Assembly: GCA_030295235.1 (NCBI GenBank)
Contig: AP026124.1
Location: 124,001 to 188,000 of the forward strand
DNA from: Fistulifera solaris
Lineage: Eukaryota
Reading direction: 5' to 3'
DNA: 64,000 nucleotides
Position 1 is the first letter of the stretch, and each line of letters opens with the position of its first letter. The position numbers were made by a program, and so were the translations under genes. Positions 23,162 through 42,379 of this stretch are shown in pieces. Below the pieces are notes generated by a model. It did not search any database. It saw only the letters and a list, made by a program, of their open reading frames with translations, and had not been told where the DNA came from.

Positions 23162-24705
23162 TTACTTGGGGTCCATTATGGACGCTAGAGCAGCGCCAGT
23201 TGCAACAGCGGCACCAAAAGTCGCGAAGAAAAATGGCGTCCGCTTTCTCTTTTGTTCCTTTTTTCTCTGTTCTTCCATTTCTTCGCGTTTCAATTTGTCG
23301 CGTTTGTTCTTTTCAGCTATTCGTTTCGCAAATTCTTCTGGTAATACGGACGAATGGTGATGAACTATTTTCCATAAGCCATTTTCGTAGGCGTAAACGA
23401 ACGAGTATCGAGCAACGGCTTTCGAGCCATCCGCTCCCATGGTGAATTCATATATCCCCGTATCTTGAGCCCAATTGGCTCCGACTGTAATTCTTCCTCC
23501 CACAATCTCTGCCCGCGGAAGAAACTCCAAAAATGTGTCGTAATACTCTCTAATTTCGTCGGGCGTGACACGCGGTGGACCGGATATCGTTGGAATAAAA
23601 CTCGCTTTGGAGGAATAAAGATCAATGACTCTGGAGGAATCCAGTGTCGCCAGAGCCCTGTTCCATTGATCAAAGAGAGCCCGTACCTGTTGTGGATTGA
23701 TCCGATTGGCGACAACACCATCTTCTGGCATGATTGACGAATGATGATGAGCAATTTTCCACCGCCCGTTCGTATATATATAGATGAACGAGAATCGACC
23801 TCGTAGCCTCTCACCCGTAGCCTGGAACACGAATTCGTATATCCCACTGTCTTTGGCCCAATTCGTGCCGATGTGGACGTTTGAGCAAAGAATTTGACAT
23901 TGCGGTCGTAGACGGAGAAAAGCACGATAGTAGTTGCGTATGCTGTTCGGGTTGGTCAAAGGCGCATCGGATGCGGTCGGAAGTACGACGGCATCTTCGG
24001 TATATCGGTTTAACACGGCTTCCGCATCTCCTATAATCAACGCATCATTCCACAAATTAAAAAGATTGCGAACTTGAGCCTCCGAAATGCGTTGCTCGAC
24101 GACGACTGATTCGGGCATGAAGGATGAATGATGATTGAGAATTTTCCATGCTCCGTTTTCTTTGACGTAAAAGAACGAATAACGGGCCATCATACTCGTC
24201 CCATTATCCAAGAATTTGAATTCATAAATTCCTACATCCTTGGCCCATCCATCTCCTATTTTAATCCGTCCTCCGACAATTTCGGCTTGCGGTTTCCGTC
24301 GTAGAAAAATGTCAAAATAGTCGATAATACTTTGCGTGGTATTGCGGGGTTCGTCGCGAATGGTAGGAATGAGAATAGCTTCACTCGAATAGCACGCCGC
24401 GACTTTTTTGGCATTCCCGGTAATCAACGCTTGATTCCATTTATCAAATAGCTTTCGAATTTCTTCAGGGGAATTTGGTTTGACCTTTTCCACCAATCGG
24501 GCATATTGAAGGAGGCTAAACGACCAAATGAATTCTCCGTGACAGCACTATATATTGTAGTGATGGGAGATCGATGTATTGCGAAAGAATGACCATGTAT
24601 CCATGATTGTGTAATTTGTGTCGGCGATAAGAACGCCACGGTAAATTGGACCGTCCACAACACACATGAAGCACAGTAGAGCGAATATGACAGCGATCTT
24701 TTCAT
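23162..24705 (-). CDS. Iota-class carbonic anhydrase (LCIP63/COG4875, SnoaL/NTF2-like fold), 3 domains, bipartite presequence and C-terminal hydrophobic tail; frameshift near 24497
   Basis: Three repeats of LFxxWNxAL...PT...R...Y(F/Y)xxFL...GIYEF...RYSF...W.I.HHSS. N-terminus ...VQFTVA-FLSP. C-terminus FFFATFGAAVATGAALASIM. Confidence 0.8.
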
Positions 24706-24878: not shown

Positions 24879-25330
24879 TCTCACGTATCGACGGACAGAA
24901 ACAGAAATTCTGTCAACCAAGTCGCTACGTTTCGCAACAACAGAAGAGGAAGTATCTGGTAGAGCTAAGACGATAAACAGTCAAAGTTTTCCAAACAACA
25001 ATATTATGAAGCCTTTACAAATCCGACAAATGAACAAGGTGGAATCTCACTGGGTGATGGTTCCGCCGAGAATGTCACTGCCATCGGACTAGGTCTTGTT
25101 TTATCTTGAAATTCTGAGCTCACGTATGTGGCTCTAACATTCTTGTATCGCGTTGCTTGCAAACCTTTCACGCCTTCACGATCAACCCAAATCGTGCAAA
25201 GACCCTTGGGCCTCGCCCAAGAGGTTACACTCCTGATGCTTCCGATTTGGGGATCGGAATTCGCATTAGGTCGTGCGGCCATATTGGCTGAGTCCCTAGT
25301 AGTCTGCCCGCTATCCGCATTTCCGTGACA
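24879..25330 (-). repeat. 3' LTR (452 bp); polypurine tract GAGAGGGAG immediately upstream at 25331-25339
   Basis: Matches 31526-31977 with no difference found by eye. Confidence 0.95.
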
Positions 25331-28300
25331 CTCCCTCTCAGACGAAGAGGGACCACTTTCAACCCAACCCATTAACTTGTCTCGAAGATAGGTAAATGTT
25401 TCCCTAGGCAATCCTTTCGTCATGATATCCGCGAAGCTGTTCTTTAGTGTCAATCTTGTTGATTTTCAATTCACCACTTTGAACATGTTGTCGGAAGAAA
25501 TGATACTTCGTGCCGTAGTGCTTCGAGCGAGGGGTCATCCGCGGAATCGTAGCAAGAGTGAGCTCCATTGTTGTCTTCAAATACATCCGAATGGGCAATG
25601 CTCTCGACTTGGTCTTCTCCAGTAATAGCCTTAGCAACAGCAGTAACAAGTCTTCGCATCGGCAAAACATCGCGCATGGCGGTACTCAATGCGACATATT
25701 CACTCTCCATTGTACTTAGAGAGCTTTCAGACTGTAGCTTCGATACCCAAAGTAGGGGGCAATTGCCGAGCGTCAAAATATAACCAGTACGCGACTTCAC
25801 ACTTATCGGATCTTCAGGATCTTCAGCACCCCACAATCCGGCAAAGTCGGCATCAACAAAACAATCAATTTTCAACTCTTTCGTCGGACGCATCACCAAA
25901 CCACGATCTGCCGTTCCTTTTAAATAGCGGACGATTCTCTTGATCGCTTTAGCATGACTTTGTCTTGGCGAATGAGTGAAACGAAAGCACTGATGGACGG
26001 CAAATGCAATATCCGGTCGAGAGTTTGACGACAAGTAGAGCAACATTCCAACAACCGAAGCATAATTCCAAGATTCGGCAAATGCAGCACCAGCCAAATC
26101 TTTTCCCAATGGCTTGTTTTCAGCAGGCGTGTCGCAAGAATTACAATCAGCCATGTCGGTGGCTTCGATGACGCGTTTAATGAGACCTTTCTGGGTCAAC
26201 TCGATAGTATCTCCACGACGGGTAAACTGAATTCCCAAGAACGCGGAAACATCTTTCGACTCCACAGTTAAAGTTAAAACCTTGTCAATAGTGTCAATCA
26301 TGTCATCCATGCACTTTTCATCGAGACTGAACCAAAGGCAATCATCGACATAAGTCAAACAAATAATTTTCTCGCACGAACAGGCAAGCATCGATGTCGA
26401 CCAACTGTTTGAAACCATGCTTCTCCAAAGTGTCCTTCAATAAGTTGAAGAATCGGAGAGGACTGTCGGACTTGCCGTGAAAGCGTCTTTTGGAGCATCA
26501 AAACAGTATCTTCGCCATCGTCGTGAAATCCTTGAGGCATCTCGATGTAGCACTCTTCAGTAGGTGGCAAAGGAGCTTGAGCGAACGCATTGACATAATC
26601 AACTTGGCGGGTATGCATTCCGTGGACGATGGACATAATTAACAGCAACCGAACTGTGGACCACTGTACGACAGGAGAGTAGGACTCGAAGTAGTCTACT
26701 CCTTTTATCTCCATGTCGCCACGAACGCAAAATCTCGCCTTGTACTTCGTGGGTGTCCCATCCGGTGAACGTTTAAGCCGAAACGCCCAAGTGGATTTTA
26801 TCACGCGCTTATTCGCAGGTACTGAAGCTCGCGGAATTTTCTTCCACGTCCCCATCATCTCCAACATTCGAATTTCTTTCACCATCGCCTCTTGCCATTC
26901 TCGATATTCGGCAGACGACATTGCTTGATGATACATTGGATAGTCGGGATCGGAACCTTTCTTTGGCTTCTTTGCACGCTGCATAGCGGCGAAAGCAACA
27001 GGGTCGCGCAAATCAAACTCGCCGATCTCCCGAATCCCAACAAGCAACAAGGCCGGAATGAATCGACGCAATAAAGGAGAAAGTTTGGCGAGGAATCGGG
27101 CGCAAGAACAACCGGAAGCAACGTTTGTAATGAATTCGTTGAATCTCTTTGGAGCACGTCTCTCGCGAGTGGATCGGCGAGGTTCGGCAGGAACAGCTGG
27201 TGTCTTCTTCCGCGGCGAACTTGATGGAGGCTTGGCATCCACAGCAACCTTTGGAGCAGGAATCGGCTCAACCGGCTTTGAAATAGGCTCAGATAATTTA
27301 ACAGGAGTAGTAACTGTCTTTTGTTCTGGCTCCCTCTGCAATGTAGGCTCGTTTGAACTCTTTTCAGTTGTAGGCTCGGCATCGGTTCGTAATCGCTGGT
27401 GCACTTTGTCGAAATCAACTGGAGGGCTAGCAGTGTCTTGGACGCTTCGAATTTTGCGAGATCGCTCTTGAATTCGAACATGCAACTCATCTTGACTCAA
27501 CCATTCATCATCCAAGTCGATCGGATCATCCTCATCGAAAAATACCTGAAAGCGAGATGATGCGAAGATGTCGGCCCAAGTCTCCGGATCGACAGAATCA
27601 TCCTCATTAACGACATTCAAACAGTGGCAAACCAATCATCAACAACAACATGGAACTGCGCGGAAATCCGGTTTGTTTCTAGGTTCAGAACGACAGGAAC
27701 ATTCGATGCATGCCGCTTTGACAAACCCAAGAAAACGCCCGCTCTCGAGCGAGGTTCAAATTTCGAATCTTGTGCCCATCTTGCAACTGAGGGTTCAAAA
27801 TATAAGCGGGTGATCCCCATACATGCATATCAGCAAACACTTTCCGATCGGTCGTTGTTCTGAAGATCATATCAGCCGGAGATGAATTATTTTCGCCCGG
27901 GTCCGTAGTTGAAATTTTGAACGACATAATCGATCGCCTGAGGCCACAAATCCGAAGAAATCGCTTTCGGCCAACGCAGTTTAGCATGTAGCATCGTGGT
28001 GCGTGCGAGAGATATAATACTTCCGATCGCTGTCAGCAACAGCATTTTGGTGGTGAGCACCAGGTCCACTGAGAGTCATCGACTGGTAGTTCGTATCAAT
28101 TTGCTTTGCGAACTCCTGCGCCGTAAACGTGCCATTGTCAGTATGATATTGGACCACCGTGATGCCGTGATTAGCCATTGCACTTTCGAACTCCAACTTG
28201 GCGCCAAAGCCCTCGCCAGCAGTAAAATTCAAAACGTGAACGACATACACGAAGCCACTTGCATGATCGACAAAAATAACACCGCCTTTGAACTTCTCAT

Positions 28301-31300
28301 CATCCTTGGTACCACCGAAACCAGAGTAGAGACGACCTCTCGTTGAAACAGAGAAGTGATCCATTGAAACCTTCTGGCCCGGAATTAAAATATCCTTCGA
28401 GAGAACTTTGGATTGGCGATCGACGGTCAATTTCGCTCCAGTCGACTTGCGCTTTCCTTTTCCATACATACAAGCAGCGACTTGGGAATATCACAACGCC
28501 GCCGCTTTGACTTCAGCAGAATTTCCGAGAGCGCCGGTTTTGAGCAAGGCTTGAATATTTTTCATGCTTCGGTGAACAAATCGGAAATGTAAGCGAAGAA
28601 GAAATTTCTGTGCTTCACTCAAGTTTTGATTCTCAGCCGCGGTCACACAGTTTCGAATCTTTGCAGCATTGAGAGCAACAGATTGTTTTCGGAACATCTC
28701 CAGAGTAGGCAAGTTGTTTTCCGGAGAGTAAACAATATCAAGAAAGTGGCCGTCCAACAGATCGACATGAATGAGGCTCGAGTCGCCTGAAAAACGCGGT
28801 TCGTCGTTTCGTTGCGCCTTCACCAATTGACAGTAGGACTGTGGGCTGAAGAGTCGGATATTGGCATCGGGCACATGTAATCCAGGGACCCGAAAAGTAA
28901 AGCCCTTGCCGTTGGACAGAGTAACAGTCCACTCAAGAGTGCCCGTGCCGGCAATCGAAGAACCTGCAGCAAAGCCAGACAAAACTTTATCGCCAGTAGT
29001 CGGAGTGTAGGACGTGAAGTCAGCACGGTCGAAAGTAACAGCAACTGTGGCTCCAGTATCCCAAATAACCGGAAACAGATCCGCCATGGTAGGCTTTCCA
29101 GCGACATGCACTTGATGCAAAGCAGGGAGGGCATAAATAGACGGGGGCAGCTTCGCGTACGGTGCAAAGTAGGCTTTAGAGTTGTCTACACTATTATCTC
29201 CCTCTCGAAGCAACATCGTCTCACTTTCACTAGCAGCTCCCTCTGGAAAGAAATGCCCAGTGGGATAGCAAAACAGAAGAGAGTCGTCCAGTAGGTTCCA
29301 AGGCTTAGGATGCCCGTTCGGGCGGACACGATAAATCTAAAGACTCGGTACACAAATGGCCATTGCTGTCAATCATATCCGGAAGCTCCAAGGCCCAACG
29401 AGGAATCGCTTCAAGTCTTCGACGACGTTTGCTCCTCTCGCAGTTTCCGACAAAACGATTTTGCTTGCGACGCCGAAAAACACCATCCTCACCATGCTGA
29501 CAAGACGAATCTTTTGAAGATGAAGAAGGATCAGGAGGTCGGCTTAAACGTCGGCTGCGATCACTTGGATGAAACTGGTAGCGGCCATGCCAGGCGGGCA
29601 CCAAGTTAACTCCATAAACAACACCGGGGGGCGCCGAAGCGTCACTCGCCACATGCTCGTCATGATCGGAAGAAAGAACCATGAAACGACACGGAGAGAG
29701 ATGAGACGCTCGGGCAAAGGGCGTGAATCGCGGCCGAAGACCAAGAGAGCGACGATGAGCGGCACTTTGGGCACGCAACCACTTCGAGATGGTCGCAGCA
29801 ACACGGAAATGACGCCACCAAGAAAAGCACTCCACAATCAACCAGCAAAGAATAAAATGCTTCGGCCGAAAGCTCCAACGATAAACGACCGATAAATATG
29901 GACAAAAGGCTCAGGAAGGGACCTCGATCGAAGGTTCACCTTCCCTGCCGATTTCCTATTCGAATCGCTGTCGGAACCCCAACAGAACTGCAAGGGTGCC
30001 GTCCAAGCTTGAGCAACATTAGCGGCAGGAGCGGCGGGCTTGGCATCAGCGGGCTTCTCTTCTTTGCTCTTGTGCTCGTCGGTTCCATGAGTCTGGTTCC
30101 AACGCTTGCACTTGGGCGCCAATAATAGAAAGTCTTGCCGTACTTGGTCATGGTGGTGGGCTCGCCGTCCTTCGGCGATGCGAGTCCAACGAAGTTTCGG
30201 TCGAACCACCGCTTTTTCTGCCATCACCACCGCTAGCCTTCGGAGCAGCCTTGTCTTTGTTCGCCTTCTTGTCTTTGGTCTTCGAGGGAGGCAGTTTTAG
30301 TGCCGTTCGACTCGAATTTCGACTTGAGGGTCTTGAACTCGGCTTTGAGACTCTTGATAGCCGCAGTATTAGCACTAACATCAGTAGCAACTCCTTTAGC
30401 CGGTCCCCAATCGTCCTTCAGGGTGCTGTAGAAATCTTTAGCTTCATGGAGAATGCGGCGATAGTTTGTATAACCGCTCATCCTTTCAGCAACTTCCTTC
30501 GACTTTCCGGCAGAGAGACGCACAAAGTCGGAGAGAGATGCCAACTTCGTGTGCCAGTGAACACGGAACGCCGACCGAACATTTGCACAGCTGCTGCTGC
30601 AAAATAATCAAGTGGTCGCGAGGGAGCTGGTCATTAGCTTCCAACTCCTGCAAAGTCTCCATCTGCGCATTCGCCCAAGCAGCAACATTCTCACCGGGAG
30701 TTTCAACCAACGTGCGCTTCGTGAACTCCTCTCCGAGCTCTGAGACACGGCCGAAATGCGTTGGGAAGAACTTCTTCGGTGATTTTCATCCAAACCAAAG
30801 GGCCAAAGCGCTGCATGGCCGGAACTCAAGGAAGTACGAATCGCGGCGCTGGAAGGAGCGCTCCAACGAGTTGAGCAGAAAAGCAGCCGAATCGCTTAGC
30901 GAGTTGATCATGTACTGATCAAAGACACCGGACTTGATCATGTCTTCGAGATGCTTCGCGACTTCGCCGAAAGTGAACTTGCCATGGTACACGAAGAGAT
31001 CGATGACACGACTGAGATCAGCAGGATCATTCATGTAGAACGGCGACGAGACCATGCGTAATACAATGGTTGAACGCTTCATCCGCGAGCTCAACAAGGC
31101 GGTAGTCATTCGCAGTAGGACTGAACTTGGGGTCGAGACCGGCGATGCGATCCTTAAAACTTTTCTCAGCGCGATAAGGATTCGGATCTCGGAAGCAGTA
31201 GGGCTCGCAGGCACAAGGTTAACACTCGCGAGTAAAGTTTGCATCCGGAGGACCACCAATAGCTGGGATAGAACCTTGAACAAGGCCGAACTTTGGCGCG

Positions 31301-31525: not shown

Positions 31526-31977
31526 TCTCACGTATCGACGGACAGAAACAGAAATTCTGTCAACCAAGTCGCTACGTTTCGCAACAACAGAAGAGGAAGT
31601 ATCTGGTAGAGCTAAGACGATAAACAGTCAAAGTTTTCCAAACAACAATATTATGAAGCCTTTACAAATCCGACAAATGAACAAGGTGGAATCTCACTGG
31701 GTGATGGTTCCGCCGAGAATGTCACTGCCATCGGACTAGGTCTTGTTTTATCTTGAAATTCTGAGCTCACGTATGTGGCTCTAACATTCTTGTATCGCGT
31801 TGCTTGCAAACCTTTCACGCCTTCACGATCAACCCAAATCGTGCAAAGACCCTTGGGCCTCGCCCAAGAGGTTACACTCCTGATGCTTCCGATTTGGGGA
31901 TCGGAATTCGCATTAGGTCGTGCGGCCATATTGGCTGAGTCCCTAGTAGTCTGCCCGCTATCCGCATTTCCGTGACA
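31526..31977 (-). repeat. 5' LTR (452 bp), termini TG...GA
   Basis: Direct repeat of 24879-25330, bounded by the TSD. Confidence 0.95.
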
Positions 31978-32009
31978 CCGCAGCAACGTTCTCGTTCTCG
32001 CTCGGGCCC

Positions 32010-32286
32010 ACGTCATCAAGCAATCATTGCCATTAAGCAACGAGGTGGACTACGGACAGACGCGCAGTGCGCACGAACTTGAAGGACGAAAACCGCCATT
32101 TTCACCACTTTATAATATGCTATGCTCATGGACCGAGAATGCAATGGAATGTAAACGTTGTGTGACGTCAACCCCCATAAAATCACACTCGAACCACGTC
32201 ACACCTCTCTTGGTTTCACGTGTGATCCTGCGTACGTTCTGGTACTGAGATCACGAGCTGACGTTCGGCGACGTAAAGCATGACGT
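32010..32286 (+). promoter_or_regulatory. Cluster of CCRE/ATF-CREB-like bZIP motifs upstream of iota-CA 2
   Basis: ACGTCA 32010, TGACGTCA 32163, ACGTCA 32196, TGACGT 32259, TGACGT 32281. Confidence 0.65.
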
Positions 32287-32366: not shown

Positions 32367-34302
32367 ATGCGCTTCTCTGCTATTGCCCTTGCCAGTGCTG
32401 CTCTCTTCTCCAGCGAGGCGTTTGCCTTTGTGCAACACCCTCGCACGGCCTCCAAGGCGGCTATTCACTCCGAAGCCGCCTTTGTTTCCCGTCCTTCTTA
32501 CGCCAAGATCTGGGAACCTCTCTTTCTTTCGGCCGTCGCCGAAGACGAGAAGACAGTCGTCAAATCCGGTAAGGCTGAACTCACCAAAGATGAAGAAGAG
32601 ATTCGTTCACTCTTTTCTCTCTGGAACAACGCTCTTGCTACGGGAGATTCGCGTCTTGTTGCTGCGCGTTACGCCAAGGATGCTGTCCTTCTTCCGACCG
32701 TGTCCGACACTCCGCGCACGACGCCCGAATTAATCAAGGATTACTTTGATGCTTTCTTGAAGCGAAAGCCTCAGGGTGTTATTACCGAGGGATACATCAA
32801 GATTGGTGATGGATTCGCCAAGGACTCGTAAGTTCATTCACTTGTGTCGTTAAAAGCAGTCTGCGGTCGTGCACGTGCGCATGACCTCTAACGCTCGACT
32901 TGTTTTCTCTTACTCAAATTAACTACAGTGGTATCTACGAATTCACAATGGGTGACAACAATAGTAAGGTAAAAGCCCGATACACTTTTGTCTACGTCAA
33001 GGAAGATGGAAAGTGGAAGATCCTGCACCACCACTCTTCGGTCATGCCGGAAGGCATCAGCGTCGCCCAGAAAATTACCGAGAACGAAGTCCGAGGTCTT
33101 TTCAACTTGTGGAACGACGCCTTGGCAACTCTGGATTCGGATGCCGTTGCCAGCCGTTACGCCAAGACGGCAGTCTTGCTCCCCACCGTGTCGGACACGC
33201 CCCGCACCAGCTATGAGCTCATCAAAGATTACTTTGACAACTTCCTCAAACGCAAACCTCAGGGTGAAATTCTTGAATCCTACGTCCAAATTGGTACCAA
33301 CTGGGCCAAGGACAGTGGCATCTACGAATTCACCATGGGTGACACCGGTGACAAGGTGAAGGGTCGCTATTCCTTCATTTACGTCTACGAAGACGGGCAA
33401 TGGAAGATTTCGCATCACCACTCCTCCGTCATGCCCGAAGGCATTACCGTCGGACAAAAGATTGAAAAGGAAGAGGTTCGCAAATTGTTCAACTTGTGGA
33501 ACGACGCTCTCGCCACTGGAGACTCTGCCAAGGTGGCCGCCCGTTACTCGAAAAACGCCGTGCTTCTCCCCACTGTCTCCGACAAACCCCGTACCAGCAA
33601 CGAATTGATTGTTGACTACTTCAACAACTTTTTGAAGTTGGAACCCCAGGGTGTGATTGATGACGGTGAGATCATTGTTGGAACCAACTGGGCCCAGGAT
33701 GCTGGTATCTACACTTTCACTTTGGGAGCGTCGGGCAAGAAGGTCCAGGCTCGTTACTCGTTCGTTTACGTCTACGAGGACGGTGAGTGGAAGATCTCTC
33801 ACCACCATTCTTCGATGATGCCCGAAAAGGTGACTGTCCCTGAACCCATCACCAAGGAACAAGTTCGTGACTTGTTCGGATTGTGGAATGACGCTCTCGC
33901 CACGAAGGACCCCAAGAAGGTCGCTGCCCGTTACTCCAAAAACGCCGTTCTTCTTCCCACCGTGTCGGACACTCCCCGTACTTCTCCTGAGTTGATTGAG
34001 GATTACTTTGAGGCCTTCTTGAAGAAGGAACCCCAGGGTGTCATTGACAGTGGAGATATCACCATCGGAGCTAACTGGGCCCAAGATGCCGGTATCTACA
34101 CCTTCACCATGGGCAATGACGGATCCAAAGTTCAGGCCCGATACTCCTTCGTTTATGTATTCGAGGATGGTGAATGGAAGATCTCTCACCACCACTCCTC
34201 GGTCATGCCGGAGGCTTTGCTCAACCCCCAAAGGCCGAAGCAAAGAAAGAGGAGGTTGAAGCAAAGAAAGAGGAAGTTACGGAAGAGAAGGTTGAAGCAT
34301 AA
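32367..34302 (+). CDS. Iota carbonic anhydrase, 4 domains, plastid-type presequence; intron 32828-32928
   Basis: MRFSAIALASAALFSSEAFA-FVQ. Four HHHSS domains. Intron splits Ser of KDSGIY. True end is likely ...KAEAKKEEVEAKKEEVTEEKVEA* (TAA 34300-34302) after a missing base in the C/A run near 34228. Confidence 0.88.
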
Positions 34303-34668
34303 TCAAGTTATATCATGCATATAATTTTGTCCCAGTATTATCGTGAGAATCTAATGTTTACTAGCTAGAAAAGCTTAGTCTATTTGACTGACCCTCATCG
34401 TACATCTGACGATTCTTATTGGTCAAAGGGTGACTTGTGACTTAATTTCAGTGCAGTCCCTGAATTTCGCATGTGCACAGTAGGTTTTACCAGGTAGTGT
34501 CCTAATCCCTAATCATGTTCGGTAACCGCGCGGACGTGGAAAAAATCTTCACAAGAAATGAATTACGGAGTACCAGACAAAACCAAGCGAAGATCATTGC
34601 TATTGATAAAAGACATTATTATTCAACATTCAACATTTACATTTTCTCGAAATAAACAATCAACACAA

Positions 34669-36159
34669 ATGACAAGCTTGAAAAAAGCATACGTTTTATA
34701 TGTCGATCATCAAGGCCATCCGGCACCTTTAACGGAATGTTTTCACGCCACCGCGTCTCGTCGGCTTTCTTCGACACTGCAGCGCTTTCCCCCTTCTTCC
34801 GTCACTTCCATCGATAGTGCCTACTGCCCAAATTGTTTGACTTCGCAAGATCCTGTTCAATATTGTAATCGCTGTCAGCGATGTCCAGTTTGTGTGCATG
34901 CGATGTTGCAAATCATGGTCCGTGATAATCACTGTGTCTACGAATGTGCGACGTGTCAATGGCGTAGCGCTATATCGGTACCCGTGGTCGAAAATGCGAG
35001 TAAAGTAGAAATAGCACGAGCAGCGGAAGATTTATGCTTACAAGCAAAAGAAGCGAGACAAGTGGCAGATCACAAAGATTTGTTTTCGGAACGAAAGATA
35101 CGTCGTGAAATTCACTCACTGCGTTCGTTTGAGCGAGAGAAAGATTGGTCGTTGGAGATTCTCGAAGCAACGCTGGAAACAAAAAGAAAACAGAAGAGTA
35201 GTTTTCCGGAAGAGTCATCAAAGGTCGAGAGTAGTTTATCGATTCAACGACTCGATCTAGAAGACGAGGAGGATACGCGGTTCGAAGGTACTATAGGAGC
35301 ATGGCAGTGGCAGGCCTTGGTTCGTGGTGTACATCGCAATGATCTGCTACCCTTACCGGTTCCTTTACGTGCTCGTCGAAGTCGTCGGTGTCGTGCTGAA
35401 CTTGCCTCGGGTCGTCCCGGAATTTTGGTCAAACCGAAAGTCAATCCTTTGGAGGGCGACAGCAGTTTAAGAACAGGCCACGGTCAATGGTGGAGAAAGG
35501 TACGCCAGTCAGCTCAAAATGAATCATTACATAAATTATACAAAAATCTCACACGGGTTTTATTCATTTTTCAGGATTCGAGTGCCATTCACGTAATTCC
35601 GCGTGTACGAGTGATGAAGATGGTCTATCAGGAACAATCCATCCATTTTCTATTACAAGTTACGAACCCAACGTTAGGTTTGATTCGATTGCGATGGAGC
35701 CCTAGTCCTTATTGTGGCGAAGAGGATTGGGATGGAAATGTGACGTTACTGTTACCGCACCTATTGGTTGACACCATAACACAGGAGATTTGGCACGTAC
35801 GACTGCTCGAGGCGGAAGAGAGGCAATTTGAGACAACCGAGATTATAGAGCTCGCGTCAGCCGAAGATTCCTTGCTGGAACTAAGTCACAGTAGTGGTAA
35901 TCAAGTACCAGAAGCTGTATCCCGTTGGAGTGGTACCAGCGAACATACTCAGTGGATCGCTCAGCAGCAACAAGACGCCTGGCTGGAAGTTGTCGTTAAA
36001 ATCAAGGCAGCAATGAAGAACAATGAGCATTGGGCGATTCCGCTTCGGATGCAAGTCGAGCTTGGCAATGGTTCGTGGGAATCATCGCTGATTCAGCAGG
36101 ATACCTCCAAAGAAACAGATTGGGTCGATTTCGACGTGGTATTGACGTGGGAGTCATGA
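34669..36159 (+). CDS. DCTN4: Dynactin subunit 4 (p62)-like; probable in-frame intron 35500-35574
   Basis: IDSAYCPNCL, CNRCQRCPVC, YECATCQW, LLPLPVPLRARRSRRC, LVKPKVNP match the p62 motif order. Confidence 0.7.
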   Translation: MTSLKKAYVLYVDHQGHPAPLTECFHATASRRLSSTLQRFPPSSVTSIDSAYCPNCLTSQDPVQYCNRCQRCPVCVHAMLQIMVRDNHCVYECATCQWRSAISVPVVENASKVEIARAAEDLCLQAKEARQVADHKDLFSERKIRREIHSLRSFEREKDWSLEILEATLETKRKQKSSFPEESSKVESSLSIQRLDLEDEEDTRFEGTIGAWQWQALVRGVHRNDLLPLPVPLRARRSRRCRAELASGRPGILVKPKVNPLEGDSSLRTGHGQWWRKVRQSAQNESLHKLYKNLTRVLFIFQDSSAIHVIPRVRVMKMVYQEQSIHFLLQVTNPTLGLIRLRWSPSPYCGEEDWDGNVTLLLPHLLVDTITQEIWHVRLLEAEERQFETTEIIELASAEDSLLELSHSSGNQVPEAVSRWSGTSEHTQWIAQQQQDAWLEVVVKIKAAMKNNEHWAIPLRMQVELGNGSWESSLIQQDTSKETDWVDFDVVLTWES

Positions 36160-36748
36160 GGGGCTAACACCTTTTACATCCTTTGCTTCCACGTGTCTTT
36201 TCGTGTCCATCATGATGTATTTTCTTTGGAGTGAAATTATGTGAACGGGAGAGTTTGTCGATGGTTTTTGCTGAACAGAAATGCAATAGGCCAAACCTGG
36301 TACCTTGCTTTGTTCTAACTTTTACCTTCTTTCGTTGGCCAAGTTGATATAGTCGGCCCTATTTAAACTTATGGCTAAGAGAAAAGGTCGGAAGCTTCAA
36401 ACGGGCTCTTTTAATCGTGTTAGACCTACGTATGGTACCGGTACCAGGTACCTTTTCTAGTTGTTTTGTTTTTGACCTTCTATCATAGAGCAGGCGTAAA
36501 ATAGGCCATAATCCAGCTAGCTGCAAGGCCAACGCTATCCGAGAAAACAGCTATACAGCATCTACTAGATACCTAAAATGTGGATGGGACTTAATTGCAA
36601 TCTCTACTTGCCTGTCAGGTCTCCCCAGAGTTCACCCCCACCCGGGATTCGGCTGACGACTCGAGCACGGCGAGCGAAAAAGGTTCTTGCGACGAGCAAG
36701 TGCCAAGTCGAAGTTGCGATCCGGCATTCAGGCGCAAAGATCCATGGG

Positions 36749-36865
36749 TGACGTCAGATCTTTGAAAAAACACGTCACACATACGACACGAGGTCCAGAG
36801 TAGGATGTAAAGTAAAGCAGACGGAACGCGAGGTCTTTTGTAGTTTCGTGACGTGCCTGTGACGT
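36749..36865 (+). promoter_or_regulatory. Cluster of CCRE-like motifs upstream of iota-CA 3
   Basis: TGACGTCA 36749, ACGTCA 36772, TGACGT 36849, TGACGT 36860. Confidence 0.65.
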
Positions 36866-36970
36866 ATGCGTACGTGGTTGATCGTTGGTCTGAGTATTCC
36901 GATCGTTCAAAAGCGTTCATTGCATCGCATCACAAAAACGAAAAGCGTCGTTTCATTTATCTTCATCACA

Positions 36971-38340
36971 ATGTTTACCGCTCGCGCTGCCAAATCCCTC
37001 CCTGTTTTGCGACAGTATCAGTCCAAGCAGCTTTACGCTGCTGGATCTAACTCTGCGACCCTTTTTTAGCTTCTCTGGCGGTGATAAGGGACCGAAAGAC
37101 GAAGAAGTCCGAGCCCTTTTCTCCGTCTGGAACAACGCCCTGGCTACAGGAGACTCGGCTACCGTGGCTTCTTGTTATGCCAAGGATGCTGTCCTTCTTC
37201 CTACCGTGTCGGATACTCCTCGTACTTCTCCGGCTTTGATCAAGGACTACTTCGATGCCTTCTTGAAGCGAAAGCCTCAAGGTGTAATCACCGACGGATA
37301 CATCCGATCGGGAGAAGGATTCGCCAAGGACTCGTAAGTATACTTGAAGTAGTCATTTAAGAGCGAAACATTTATCGTTCGCTCACACTTCCGTTTCTCT
37401 GTCGTTCAGTGGTATCTACGAATTCACCATGGGTGACACTGGCGACAAGGTCAAAGCCCGATACAGTTTCGTCTACGTCAAGGAGGATGGAAAGTGGAAG
37501 ATCTTGCACCACCACTCATCTGTCATGCCGGAAGGTATTACTATTGGAAAGAAGATTGAGAAAGACGAAGTTCGCAGCTTGTTTAACCTGTGGAACGACG
37601 CTCTTGCCACTGGAGACTCTGCCAAGGTGGCCGCTCGTTACTCGAAAAACGCCGTTCTTCTCCCCACTGTCTCCGACAAACCCCGCAACAACAACGATTT
37701 GATCGTTGACTACTTCAACAACTTCTTGACGTTAAAGCCTCAGGGTGTCATTGATAGTGGCGATATCCTCATCGGAACCAACTGGGCCCAGGATGCTGGA
37801 ATTTACACCTTCACTTTGGGTGCGAACGGCAAGAAAGTCCAAGCTCGTTACTCCTTCGTCTACGTGTACGAGGACGGCGAGTGGAAGATCTCTCACCACC
37901 ATTCTTCGATGATGCCTGAGAAGATCGTCGTGCCTGAGCCCGTCACCAAGGAACAAGTGCGCAGCTTCTTCAACTTATGGAACGACGCCCTCGCCACTCT
38001 TGACCCCAAGAAGGTCGCTGCTCGTTACGCAAAGGACGCTGTCCTTCTCCCTACTGTGTCGGACATCCCCCGCACTTCTCCCGATTTGATCGAGAACTAT
38101 TTCGAGGCTTTCTTGCAAAAGAAGCCCCAAGGTGTCATTGACAGTGGAAATATCAAGATCGGAGCCAATTGGGCCCAAGATGCTGGTATCTACACCTTCA
38201 CTATGGGCAATGACGGATCCAAGGTCCAGGGTCGATACTCCTTCATCTATGTATTCGAGGATGGTGAATGGAAGATCTCTCACCACCACTCCTCGGTCAT
38301 GCCGGAGGCGTTCTTGAACCCCAAGGCCCCTGCTCAGTAA
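36971..38340 (+). CDS. Iota carbonic anhydrase, 3 domains, mitochondrial-like presequence; intron 37334-37409; one frameshift near 37030-37068
   Basis: MFTARAAKSLPVLRQYQSKQL..., then FSFSGGDKGPKDEEVRALFSVWNNALA. Same intron position as iota-CA 2. Three HHHSS motifs. Confidence 0.85.
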
Positions 38341-38554: not shown

Positions 38555-41382
38555 TCACGCTAGCGCGACATCATAGACTTTCTGATAATCATCAGCGTAT
38601 TCCACCTGCAAACCTTCTTTCAAGTATTCAGGAATTTCGTCAAAGTCGCGCTGGTTAGCTTGTGGCATTATCACACAAGTTATTCCTGCTCGACGAGCCG
38701 CCATAATTTTTTCTCGGATACCTCCTACTGGTAGTACCTTGCCTGTGAGACTGATCTCGCCGGTCATGGCCAAATCATTTCGAACTGGTTTAGCGGTTGC
38801 CAGTGACAGCAACGACGTGACCATTGTAATCCCAGCCGATGGACCGTCTTTGGGAGTTGCTCCTTCCGGGACATGCAAATGAATGTCTGCCGTGTCAAAA
38901 AAAGAGTTTGTCGGATCAATCTCGTGCAGTCTTGCACGCGCCACAGTGTAGGCTATGTCAGCACTCTCTTTCATGACGTCTCCGAGTTGCCCGGTTACCT
39001 TAACGTGACCGCCTCCTCGTGGCTTGCCTTCAGCGTCGGGGGCACGCTGAATGCCCTGCGTCTCAATATACAAAGCTGATCCACCCATGGATGTGTATGC
39101 TAGACCCATGACTATACCATTCGGCAAAGGTCCGTCTTCATAAAGACGATCGCTTGTAAAAATTTGTTTGCCGACATAATCGACCAGGTTGCTTTCATCT
39201 ATGGTCCATGAATTTGACTTTCGCTTCGATTTTTCCCGCAGTACAGCCCCCTCTTGCTCCGCAACAATTTGCAAGGCCAGTTTGCGAGTAATACGATCAA
39301 TATACTTGGCGAGATTACGAACACCGGCTTCGCGGGCGTACCAGCGAACCAAACTCTGAATTGCTTCACGAGAAATAGCAACGCCCTCGGGGATTCCCGG
39401 CGCATGAACGTATTTTTCAAGTGGCGTCGTTTTGATATTTGTTCCATCCTGATCGGAATCGTCCATTTTCTTTTCTTCCGAATCAAGTTCGTCGGTAGTG
39501 TCGATTTCCTTTTCGACCATTAGACCGCTCTCTTTGAACGATTTGGGGACCAAATAGTTTTCAGCGATCGTCACCTTTTCAGGGAAGTCGTATCCGGGCA
39601 GCCGAATGACTTCCATGCGATCCAGCAAAGGCCCAGGAATGCGATCCAGCTCATTGGCTGTACAAAGAAAGAGAACTTGGCTGATATCTACTGGGACGTC
39701 CAAAAGTGATCCCTGAAAGTTGAATTTTGGCTCGGATCCAGCACTTCCAACAGTGCACTGGCTGGATCGCCACGGAATCCCGACCCCAGCTTATCAATTT
39801 CATCAATAAGAATCACGGGGTTACTAGTCCCAACTGTTTTCAAGCTCTGAATGACTTTTCCGGGCATGGCGCCGATGTAAGTTCTGAAACCCGCAAACAA
39901 GAAATTAAGAAACCACCGCAAAGGAAGATTTAGGCCAAGCCGCACACATATGTCAGCAAACGCACCTTCGGTGACCCTTGATCTCGCTCACATCACTCAA
40001 ACCACCCACACTGAAACGGTAAAATTCCCGGTTGAGAGCTTGTGCGATCGACTTTCCAATACTGGTTTTTCCGGTGCCCGGAGGCCCCGCCAAACACAAG
40101 ATTTTGCCTTCCACGGTCCCTTTCAGCTTTCCGATGGCAATGAATTGTAAGATAGCATCCTTGACATCCTCTAAGCCATAATGATCTTGGTCAAGTACGC
40201 GTCTCGCTTTGGCGAGATCAAAATTCTCTTCGCTCATGACCCCCACGGAACTCCCAACAACCAATCCAAATAACTGCGGGTGACCTGATACTCGGGTGAA
40301 TTCTTTTCGAGTGTACTGAATTTTTCCATTTCTGCTTGAATAACATCGTTGACTTCCTTGGGAACCTTCTCACCATACTCTTCCAACTTCTTTTGGTACT
40401 TTTCAATCAAAGCATCCTTATCATCCCGTTCCATCCCCAATTCCTTTTGATGGACTTGAGTTGTTCCATCAAGAAGTACTTTCTTTGCGTCTCGGTCATT
40501 TTCTCCTCTACTTTTTGATTGATTTCTTTCTGTAACTGACTGACCGACAATTCCCGGTTGAGCAACACCAATGCCAAATGCAAGCGCTGTTCCGGATCGC
40601 GTTCCGCTAAAACTGCCTGCAAATCCGCGGACGCACCGCCACTGGCACTGATGCTGGCCGCAAAGTCCGCCAATTTGAACGGATCATTCGCATCAAAGCG
40701 CATGGGAAATAAATTGAGTGATTCACGAAAGAGTGGATTCATTTGTGCAATTTGTCGAATGGTACTGATGATTTCGTTCGACAAGGCCCGGATGGTGATA
40801 TCTTGATCGGGTTGAGGTGCATATTCGAGTCGGGGCCAGTGTTTGATGTTGACGCGGAGGGGAGGACCCACTTCATCAATCGAAAGCAAATCGACACGAC
40901 GATGCGCCAGAAGAGTCAAGGTGGCGGTGGTTTCTTCATCGACTTTATGAAAGCGTTGTATTTCGGCGAGAGTTCCAGTTTCGTACAACTCGAGAGGATC
41001 GGTTATGATTTCGGGTACTTCGACTACAGTTCCGTGCCCTTCTGTCGGTCTACGTAGAAAGCAGGAAAGAAAAGCTCGATCTTGATTCCAAAGTTCTTCC
41101 ATGGCTTTGATGGTAGGCGGATCCGTCAGTGTAATGGAAGTGATGAGACCAGGAAAGATGGGTCGTGTTTGCAGTGGTAGACCCAATGTATGCGGCATAC
41201 GAGGTGCTGCTTCACCAAAGGGGATTTTTCTCCGGAACAACAACAACTTTGTTGTTGTTGTTGTTGTTGTTGTTGTTCTCATCGGATGAGGAAGACGAGG
41301 AGGACGAGAACCATCGAGGAAGAGGCGCTACACGCGGCCGTCGACGAGCGGATCGAACCGCCAAGAATGAGGCCGCTATCAT
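38555..41382 (-). CDS. LON: Lon protease, mitochondrial type; intron 39965-39884; several homopolymer frameshifts
   Basis: Arg-rich presequence, Walker [36 protein letters not shown] (catalytic Ser), VGGIREK. Confidence 0.92.
41250..41277. repeat. (GTT)n microsatellite encoding poly-Asn in the Lon N-terminus
   Basis: Directly visible. Confidence 0.85.
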
Positions 41383-42379
41383 TTCGATGACCGGTCGGTT
41401 GATTAAGAAGCGCAGCGACCTTTTCTTTCGTCTAAAAAAGTAGATGTTACAAGTTCCAGAAGATGGCTTAGCGACTGAGCAAGCAAATGCCCTTCGACGG
41501 GCATCACAAAAGAACAAGAACGAATGCGTATGAACCATTCGGTTGAACCTCTCGCGCTGCGCTTTCTTTGCGATAATGCGCCTCATTCTCTGCGTGTACC
41601 TGTCCGACGCAGAGCGACTATCAAGCTTTTAGTAAGTTCCCAGAAGTCTCGTGACTCATGACTGTTCAGTCTTGGCGAAAACTGTTTGCATTTTGACCTA
41701 TAGCCTATAGCCTATAGTACATTCGGAAATGCAGCCTTGGGGATGATTATCAACGTAGTGAAACGAGGGGTTTACTATTAATGCAGCTCGAAGGAAGGAA
41801 ACGTCATGTTTTCAGAGCTGATGACATATCTTAAAAGTATTGCTGATGACCCTCGCTTCAATGTAGCCAAACATCACAATCATAGTTCATGACTGAATTC
41901 CAGTCACAGTTCACGCCTGTCTACACGTCGCCTTTATATCGTCAGAATCTAATCTTGACATTCGACTGAATTTTCCACTTTTCATTCACATATATTTCAG
42001 TCTGACACTTCTCTGAGTAAGCTTTGGTTCTAACTCTCTAGCCTTAGTGCGCTAGTAGAGGGCCAGTCCCGAGCCCGTTTCCCAATGAGGGGGATTCCGT
42101 TTTGGCATTCCTTCTCTTGGATTTCGCAGAAGCATACTAACTGACCTGACCAGGGAAAGACTCATGCGCGCCCGGATGAAGCCACAGATCTCGGAGTATG
42201 GCTTGTTCCACTTCCTTATATAGTTTTCTCATCAAATAATGTGAACGTGACAAGGACAGACGACTTTTCCGAGATTGATGAGAGATGCAAAATGCAAAGC
42301 GCAACCAAAGTGCAAAGTACTTAGACATAACAATAAGTGCGGAAAGAAGTGTGATACCTAGTAACACAAAAGACACAGA

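Follow-up and report, generated by a model that had tools for sequence, protein, structure and literature searches.

An Iota-Carbonic Anhydrase of Fistulifera solaris With a Predicted Mitochondrial Leader

CA3, one of the three iota-carbonic anhydrase (iota-CA) genes in a 64,000-nucleotide stretch of Fistulifera solaris DNA (contig AP026124.1, hereafter the window), encodes a COG4875-type iota-CA that arose by duplication of its neighbor CA2, received a new leader and, judged from its sequence, resides most likely in the mitochondrial matrix.

Results

The source genome of 51.7 Mb consists of paired contigs, and the iota-CA cluster of the window, CA1 on the minus strand, CA2 and CA3, recurs on contig C1. 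In protein searches, the GenBank counterparts in Fistulifera solaris were FisN_1Lh074 and FisN_1Hh074 for CA3, and FisN_1Lh071 and FisN_1Hh071 for CA2. The features are located in Table 1.

Table 1. Positions of iota-CA features in the window.
Feature	Positions	Strand	Remark
CA1, more divergent three-domain iota-CA	23162..24547	-	C-terminal hydrophobic tail
Five TGACG[T/C] (CCRE/bZIP11-type) motifs upstream of CA2	32163..32286	.	Motif count
CA2, four-domain plastid-type iota-CA, signal and transit peptide, CA3 sister paralogue	32367..34300	+	End approximate
Five TGACG[T/C] (CCRE/bZIP11-type) motifs upstream of CA3	36749..36865	.	Five also in the C1 homoeolog
Upstream ATG, in frame only in the window copy, probably unused	36866..36868	+	Out of frame in C1
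CA3 exon 1, leader and first two thirds of domain 1	36971..37333	+	Frame, C1 comparison
CA3 leader, residues 1-42, predicted mitochondrial presequence	36971..37097	+	No signal peptide
Extra base	37053..37053	+	Absent in C1, 4/4 runs and the GenBank protein
CA3 intron, GT-AG, 76 nt	37334..37409	+	DNA level; present in both GenBank models
CA3 exon 2, end of domain 1, domain 2 (~37561-37920), domain 3 (~37945-38307), stop	37410..38340	+	

Read from ATG 36971, the window frame gives MFTARAAKSLPVLRQYQSKQL... and terminates at the TAG at 37067-37069, and the stretch RPFFSFSGGDK, which continues into domain 1, sits one frame over. The initial annotation had assumed an indel between presequence and domain 1, to be corrected with reads, and had allowed that the TAG might be real. 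The indel proved to be a single extra base at 37053. This base is absent from the C1 homoeologous copy, whose frame stays open through all 121 codons before the intron, and all four sequencing runs examined (X1, X2, X3 and X5, of six listed) gave the short form as well. The X3 contig (36900-37103) and the X5 contig (36944-37138) each differed from the window allele by no substitution and by one gap, at 37053, while the X1 contig represented the other homoeolog, likewise without the base; X2, an independent metagenome, contributed two contigs lacking it, as judged by a loose end. X1, X3 and X5 belong to a single study, and rare variants get lost in assembled contigs. FisN_1Lh074 (430 aa) corresponds to the window allele: across 310 positions of exon 2 the identity is 100%, the leader is unbroken, and Tyr16 is shared with the window CA3 leader. 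The extra base is an assembly error that causes an apparent frameshift, and the TAG is out of frame once it is removed.

It is extremely improbable that the extra base is real, leaving this allele either a pseudogene or dependent on a 55-nt rescue intron (GT 37015-AG 37069). Such an intron would bring the frame back and carries a CTAAC branch-like site, and a minor allele with the extra base may have been lost from the contigs, but neither the base nor the intron joint occurred in any of the four runs. The X3 and X5 contigs run unspliced across 37015-37069 with the letters of the window allele, the GT is missing in the C1 copy, the GenBank protein of the window allele is intact, and comparable one-base breaks are found in CA2 on both contigs. 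The rescue intron, although fitting the frame, was therefore ruled out by the C1 copy and the run contigs. A practical lesson is that single-base breaks in this assembly are often errors.

CA3 comprises 430 residues (121 + 309) in both GenBank models. The CA3 intron and the CA2 intron (32828-32928) each lie inside the Ser codon of KDS/GIY, confirming at the DNA level the common intron position that had been noted initially. A spliced CA3 joint at 37334-37409 was found in none of the contigs of the four runs, which are only presumed to be RNA.

CA3 carries three complete repeats, scoring above the cut-offs of Pfam CaMKII_AD (PF08332) and TIGR02246. Domains 1, 2 and 3 keep 47, 48 and 47, respectively, of 48 columns showing 95% conservation across 726 domains of the matches listed, and the conserved core includes PTVS, YF and HHSS; we infer that the PTVS-Thr and YF-Tyr are equivalents of the catalytic Thr and Tyr of COG4337 proteins. 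CA3 matched PDB 3H51 with E 1.5e-33 and ~51% identity, and the COG4337-type 7C5X with E 5.6e-15 and 21% identity; its sequence is closer to COG4875 than to the metal-free COG4337 type. The predicted structure contains three alpha+beta barrels, with domains mostly at pLDDT>85, and its top fold matches were the iota-CAs 7C5X/7C5Y and 3H51 (TM 0.80 over the target). The leader is disordered in this model, with pLDDT<50 for residues 1-33 and 35-37. Going by repeats, motifs and predicted fold, CA3 is an intact three-domain iota-CA of the LCIP63/COG4875 type, with predicted activity.

CA2 and CA3 formed a sister clade with tree support of 100/99. CA3 has three domains vs. four in CA2: its domain 1 pairs with CA2 domain 1 (79% over exon 1), the second half of domain 1 being a mosaic of CA2 domains 1 and 2, and its domains 2-3 pair with CA2 domains 3-4 (88%), suggesting that one repeat was probably lost in CA3. 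The domains had initially been called near-identical, which overstates an identity of 79-88% between proteins of three and four domains. At four-fold sites, CA2 and CA3 differed at 45 of 120, and the homoeologs at 28 of 130 and 34 of 185; the larger divergence between CA2 and CA3 indicates that the duplication predates the subgenome split. We propose that CA3 originated, ahead of that split, as a tandem copy of the plastid-type CA2 and lost one repeat. Synonymous to replacement changes between the CA3 homoeologs were 8:1 in the leader (38 codons, codons 27-28 being left out), compared with 13:1 for the remainder of exon 1 and 55:5 for exon 2. The leader ratio, being like that of the domains, implies that the leader is translated and under selection; these sequence counts show purifying selection on it, apparently as strong as that on the catalytic domains.

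The N-terminus of CA3 holds five R/K and no D/E in its first 30 residues, with the first acidic residue at position 38, and its best 10-residue Kyte-Doolittle mean is 0.64 vs. 2.31 for CA2, bearing out the initial observation that a signal-peptide hydrophobic core is missing. The signal peptide plus transit peptide of the plastid LCIP63 class is absent, and the leader has the basic, acid-free character without hydrophobic core of a presequence. Two comparators in the genome, Lon and PEPC, have six R/K, no D/E and the first acid at 34 and 41, respectively. The best hydrophobic moment was 0.41-0.44 for the CA3 leader, and 0.68, 0.61 and 0.51 for Lon, PEPC and CA2. Of the MPP cleavage patterns, R-2 would fit R29-P-F-F-S, and R-3 and R-10 fit loosely; overall, the agreement with the R-2/R-3/R-10 patterns is loose. 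We predict with good confidence, from these sequence features, that CA3 is imported via the presequence pathway and cleaved near RPF/FS. What the initial annotation proposed as retargeting after duplication stands as to the CA2 origin, the missing signal peptide and a conserved mitochondrial-like leader, with the destination itself a prediction.

The leader end LRPFFS resembles LRSFFS of the plastid-type iota-CAs P0035, P0030 and P0110, which matched the CA3 leader at p<=0.05 (186 N-termini, among the matches listed), so the leader could be a transit-peptide remnant. CA3 could then be cytosolic, having lost its signal peptide and kept a transit-peptide-like leader that drives no import. Besides the LRPFFS similarity, the modest amphipathicity of the leader fits this reading, as do the start of mature Thalassiosira pseudonana LCIP63 with LFGSR right after the transit peptide (PMC5299434) and the assignment of one Nitzschia LCIP63 to the cytosol (PMC8329260). 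However, the leader is constrained as strongly as the catalytic domains, its first 37 residues are acid-free, and it shows no likeness to the CA2 leader at the protein (p 0.98) or DNA level, so that we consider a cytosolic CA3 quite unlikely. A DNA search of the genome for a donor of the leader matched the two homoeologs only.

Plastid or secretory targeting, through the ATG at 36866, which would add a weakly hydrophobic extension of 35 residues, or through another 5′ exon, is very improbable. In the window copy this ATG shares the CA3 frame and is directly followed by hydrophobic residues, but it is out of frame in C1, where the indels were confirmed by the X1 and X2 contigs, and it falls within the CCRE cluster. 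Moreover, the X3 and X5 contigs start downstream of it, at 36900 and 36944, and both GenBank models start at ATG 36971. The upstream ATG was rejected as a start because it is unconserved between the homoeologs. A peroxisomal CA3 was also rejected, as the C-terminal end (...KAPAQ) is not PTS1-like and no nonamer fits the PTS2 consensus.

Sets of TGACG[T/C] define the CO2/cAMP-responsive elements (CCREs) of low-CO2 genes in Phaeodactylum (bioRxiv 10.1101/2023.09.20.558591), and LCIP63 is induced at low CO2 (PMC5299434). In both subgenomes, CA2 and CA3 have five such motifs each (5/5/5/5) in the 300 nt ahead of the start, giving CA3 the clustered TGACGT/C of a CCRE/bZIP11-type proximal promoter. 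Five motifs were reached in 2 of 213 tiles of the window, namely the CA2 and CA3 promoters, which had been spotted first and were counted afterward, and in 0 of 115 tiles from other stretches. Window-wide, TGACGY was not enriched (73 observed vs. 71.6 expected), and the iota-CA paralogues on contigs C5 and C6 have 0 and 1 motifs. Given these motifs, the chances are about even that CA3 would be switched on together with CA2 at low CO2.

The genome surroundings and the other CAs provided several observations. CA1 has a charged coil, and its C-terminal tail is hydrophobic and may be a tail anchor; no start was found for CA1 in the window. Retrotransposon-like pieces, including a Pol domain (28494-29336), separate CA1 from CA2 in the window, and on C1 the two genes are divergent and <1 kb apart. 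Near-identical stretches in opposite orientation at ~24900-25400 (5′ of CA1) and 31650-32000 (5′ of CA2) would fit either an LTR pair or a duplication made on insertion. The end of CA2 can be placed only approximately, as its tail holds a second assembly frameshift (34148-34300): the frame shifts near 34225 relative to FisN_1Lh071, a protein ending in a K/E-rich repeat; the C1 copy of CA2 has a one-base frame break in the leader (L021 7658-7958). The gene between CA2 and CA3 (34513-36159) has a Cys-rich N-terminus and a weak, below-cut-off match to dynactin p62. A Lon protease gene (38555-41460, minus strand) stands tail-to-tail with CA3; introns or indels split its frame into several pieces, and its mitochondrial-looking leader ends RWF/SSS, followed by poly-S and poly-N. 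The fourth iota-CA pair, on C5/C6 (L023 3670-5135, L024 3770-5244), shows what looks like a signal peptide, three degenerate repeats (HQHSS, HHHAS/HHHDS and SD-for-TVSD changes), the KDS/QDS intron position of CA2 and CA3, and no TGACGT cluster. One pair of theta-CAs, with signal peptide, was also found.

Three protein searches, taking the best 120 of 1881, of 616 and of 350 matches, yielded 222 proteins among the matches listed, which a simple rule classed as signal peptide (126, defined by a hydrophobicity of 1.9 or more, a cut-off set in this analysis), truncated (53), other (29) and mitochondrial-like (14). From the last class, P0009, P0123, P0081, P0107 (Cylindrotheca), P0115 and P0138 were kept; P0001 (a fragment of P0123), P0025 (truncated), P0053 (unclear), and P0087, P0151, P0157, P0212 and P0221 (visible signal peptide) were dropped. 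P0101 and P0022, and later P0254 (Epithemia) and P0244, were added by eye; P0081, P0101 and P0244 are without clear start. In P0151, P0157 and P0180, all plastid-type, a basic extension lies in frame ahead of the signal peptide; it may represent 5′ UTR, or else offer a second start site that allows dual targeting.

Trees were built from the last two domains, with rows chosen from 217 after a first FastTree and the first eight labels fixed beforehand. The 50-row tree required five label changes, four of them forced by starred branches, and a single clade of the eight rows gave p-AU 2e-14; the 54-row tree required six, and a single clade of the six most complete rows gave p-AU 3e-108. Hence, on the last two domains and among the matches listed, the mitochondrial-looking diatom iota-CAs form no single clade. 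This polyphyly, which is new here, points to repeated retargeting as far as sequence can tell.

The CA3 leader resembled P0081 and the Epithemia P0254 best among the 186 N-termini of the matches listed (p<=0.006), both of which are mitochondrial-looking. This would suit a scenario in which raphid pennates have long had a mitochondrial paralogue and gene conversion homogenised its repeats with the plastid neighbor, so that domain trees would mislead. The mosaic of CA2 domains 1 and 2 in the second half of CA3 domain 1 is in line with this, and the mitochondrial-looking and plastid copies of P0254/P0220 and P0244/P0086 appear to share contigs, the longest contig being equally long within each pair and the first pair also having near locus tags. 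However, such conversion predicts that P0254 and P0244 group with their presumed contig neighbors, while the trees place them apart and reject one clade at the p-AU values above. Furthermore, 38-46% of four-fold sites differ between CA2 and CA3, matches to the CA3 leader at p<=0.01 include two plastid-type leaders (186 N-termini, matches listed), and cleavage motifs converge. We hold such an old, homogenised paralogue unlikely, although conversion between tandem copies could mask a single early origin.

Among the metagenome iota-CA loci, the 25 inspected of 32 showed no mitochondrial-looking leader and no close relative. The wetland metagenome X2 contained two alleles of CA3 with leader and promoter (window 36695-37250), indicating that the gene is present in wild relatives.

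Discussion

In the mechanism we propose, CA3 would hydrate CO2 from the TCA cycle and glycine decarboxylase in the matrix to bicarbonate when external CO2 is low, and the trapped bicarbonate would feed a mitochondrial PEPC or move back toward the plastid, as proposed for Chlamydomonas CAH4/5. Of the two PEPC pairs in the genome, one starts with a signal peptide; the other bears a mitochondrial-looking leader, whose join to the PEPC body we infer. An anaplerotic or CO2-recapture role of CA3 is plausible, since this PEPC pair and the CCRE-type motifs would fit it; reviews have proposed the anaplerotic role for diatom mitochondrial CAs (PMC7215798) and the recapture role for Chlamydomonas CAH4/5 (PMC8320531). 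Gamma-CAs are already predicted for diatom mitochondria (PMC7215798), which counts against our proposal. In the literature searched, no diatom mitochondrial CA of demonstrated activity was found.

According to the initial annotation, no characterised mitochondrial iota-CA was known. This does not hold, as Hirakawa et al. reported that the leader of the COG4337-type Bn50950 carries YFP to mitochondria, with mitochondrial peptides predicted for 19 of 62 eukaryotic COG4337 proteins (PMC8132391). Nor is CA3 unique, as had been implied, because LCIP63_5 of Nitzschia inconspicua has been predicted mitochondrial (MitoFates 0.993), with LCIP63_5a/b assigned to mitochondria in 2 of 11 supplement rows (PMC8329260). 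A mitochondrial iota-CA is therefore already shown in the COG4337 subtype and predicted in the LCIP63 subtype, to which CA3 adds a member. The open literature searched contained no experiment placing an LCIP63-type CA in mitochondria, nor any mention of iota-CAs having been retargeted repeatedly. In the available part of the founding LCIP63 paper, the string 'mitochondri' is absent (PMC6776030). A survey of chloroplast-targeted iota-CAs counted 10 or more in F. solaris, where GFP localisation has already been done (PMC6723447), and iota-CAs, regarded as chloroplast enzymes, are among the most abundant CA transcripts of ocean diatoms (PMC8119650). CA3 and CA2, a plastid/mitochondrion pair that is 79-88% identical and has matching promoter motifs, offer a clean candidate with which CO2 recapture or anaplerosis in diatom mitochondria can be addressed directly by experiment.

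Compared with LCIP63 of T. pseudonana, CA3 likewise has tandem CaMKII_AD-like repeats, of which two to four are typical, and (H)HHSS (PMC6776030, PMC5299434), and it may likewise be under low-CO2 control. In contrast, T. pseudonana LCIP63 has a signal and transit peptide and lies at the chloroplast periphery (PMC6776030, PMC5299434), whereas CA3, with three repeats, lacks a signal peptide; its Mn2+ use and activity are putative.

Bn50950 of Bigelowiella natans shares with CA3 the iota class, the fold, HHSS, and the occurrence of plastid and mitochondrial paralogues in one alga, and its proposed role is also in matrix pH and bicarbonate for anaplerosis (PMC8132391). Unlike CA3, it is a metal-free, single-domain chlorarachniophyte protein of the COG4337 subtype, and its leader is mitochondrial by YFP, that of CA3 by prediction (PMC8132391). 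Nitzschia LCIP63_5a/b are, like CA3, diatom LCIP63 proteins without signal peptide and with a predicted mitochondrial location; their location, too, is a prediction, given in the supplement (PMC8329260).

CAH4/CAH5 of Chlamydomonas are low-CO2-induced mitochondrial CAs with a proposed role in recapturing respired and photorespired CO2 or in PEPC feeding (PMC8320531, PMC7215798), and, by analogy, CA3 most likely works as they do. They differ from CA3 in being beta-class zinc enzymes, and PEPC is cytosolic in Chlamydomonas and predicted mitochondrial in diatoms (PMC8320531, PMC7215798). It is conceivable, though we hold it short of probable, that diatoms and their kin independently redirected a plastid LCIP63-type iota-CA several times (four to six changes) into a convergent, low-CO2-induced mitochondrial recapture arm of the carbon-concentrating mechanism, the F. 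solaris copy having retained its CO2-responsive promoter. If true, this arm would be the counterpart of Chlamydomonas CAH4/5, hidden in model diatoms with a single plastid LCIP63.
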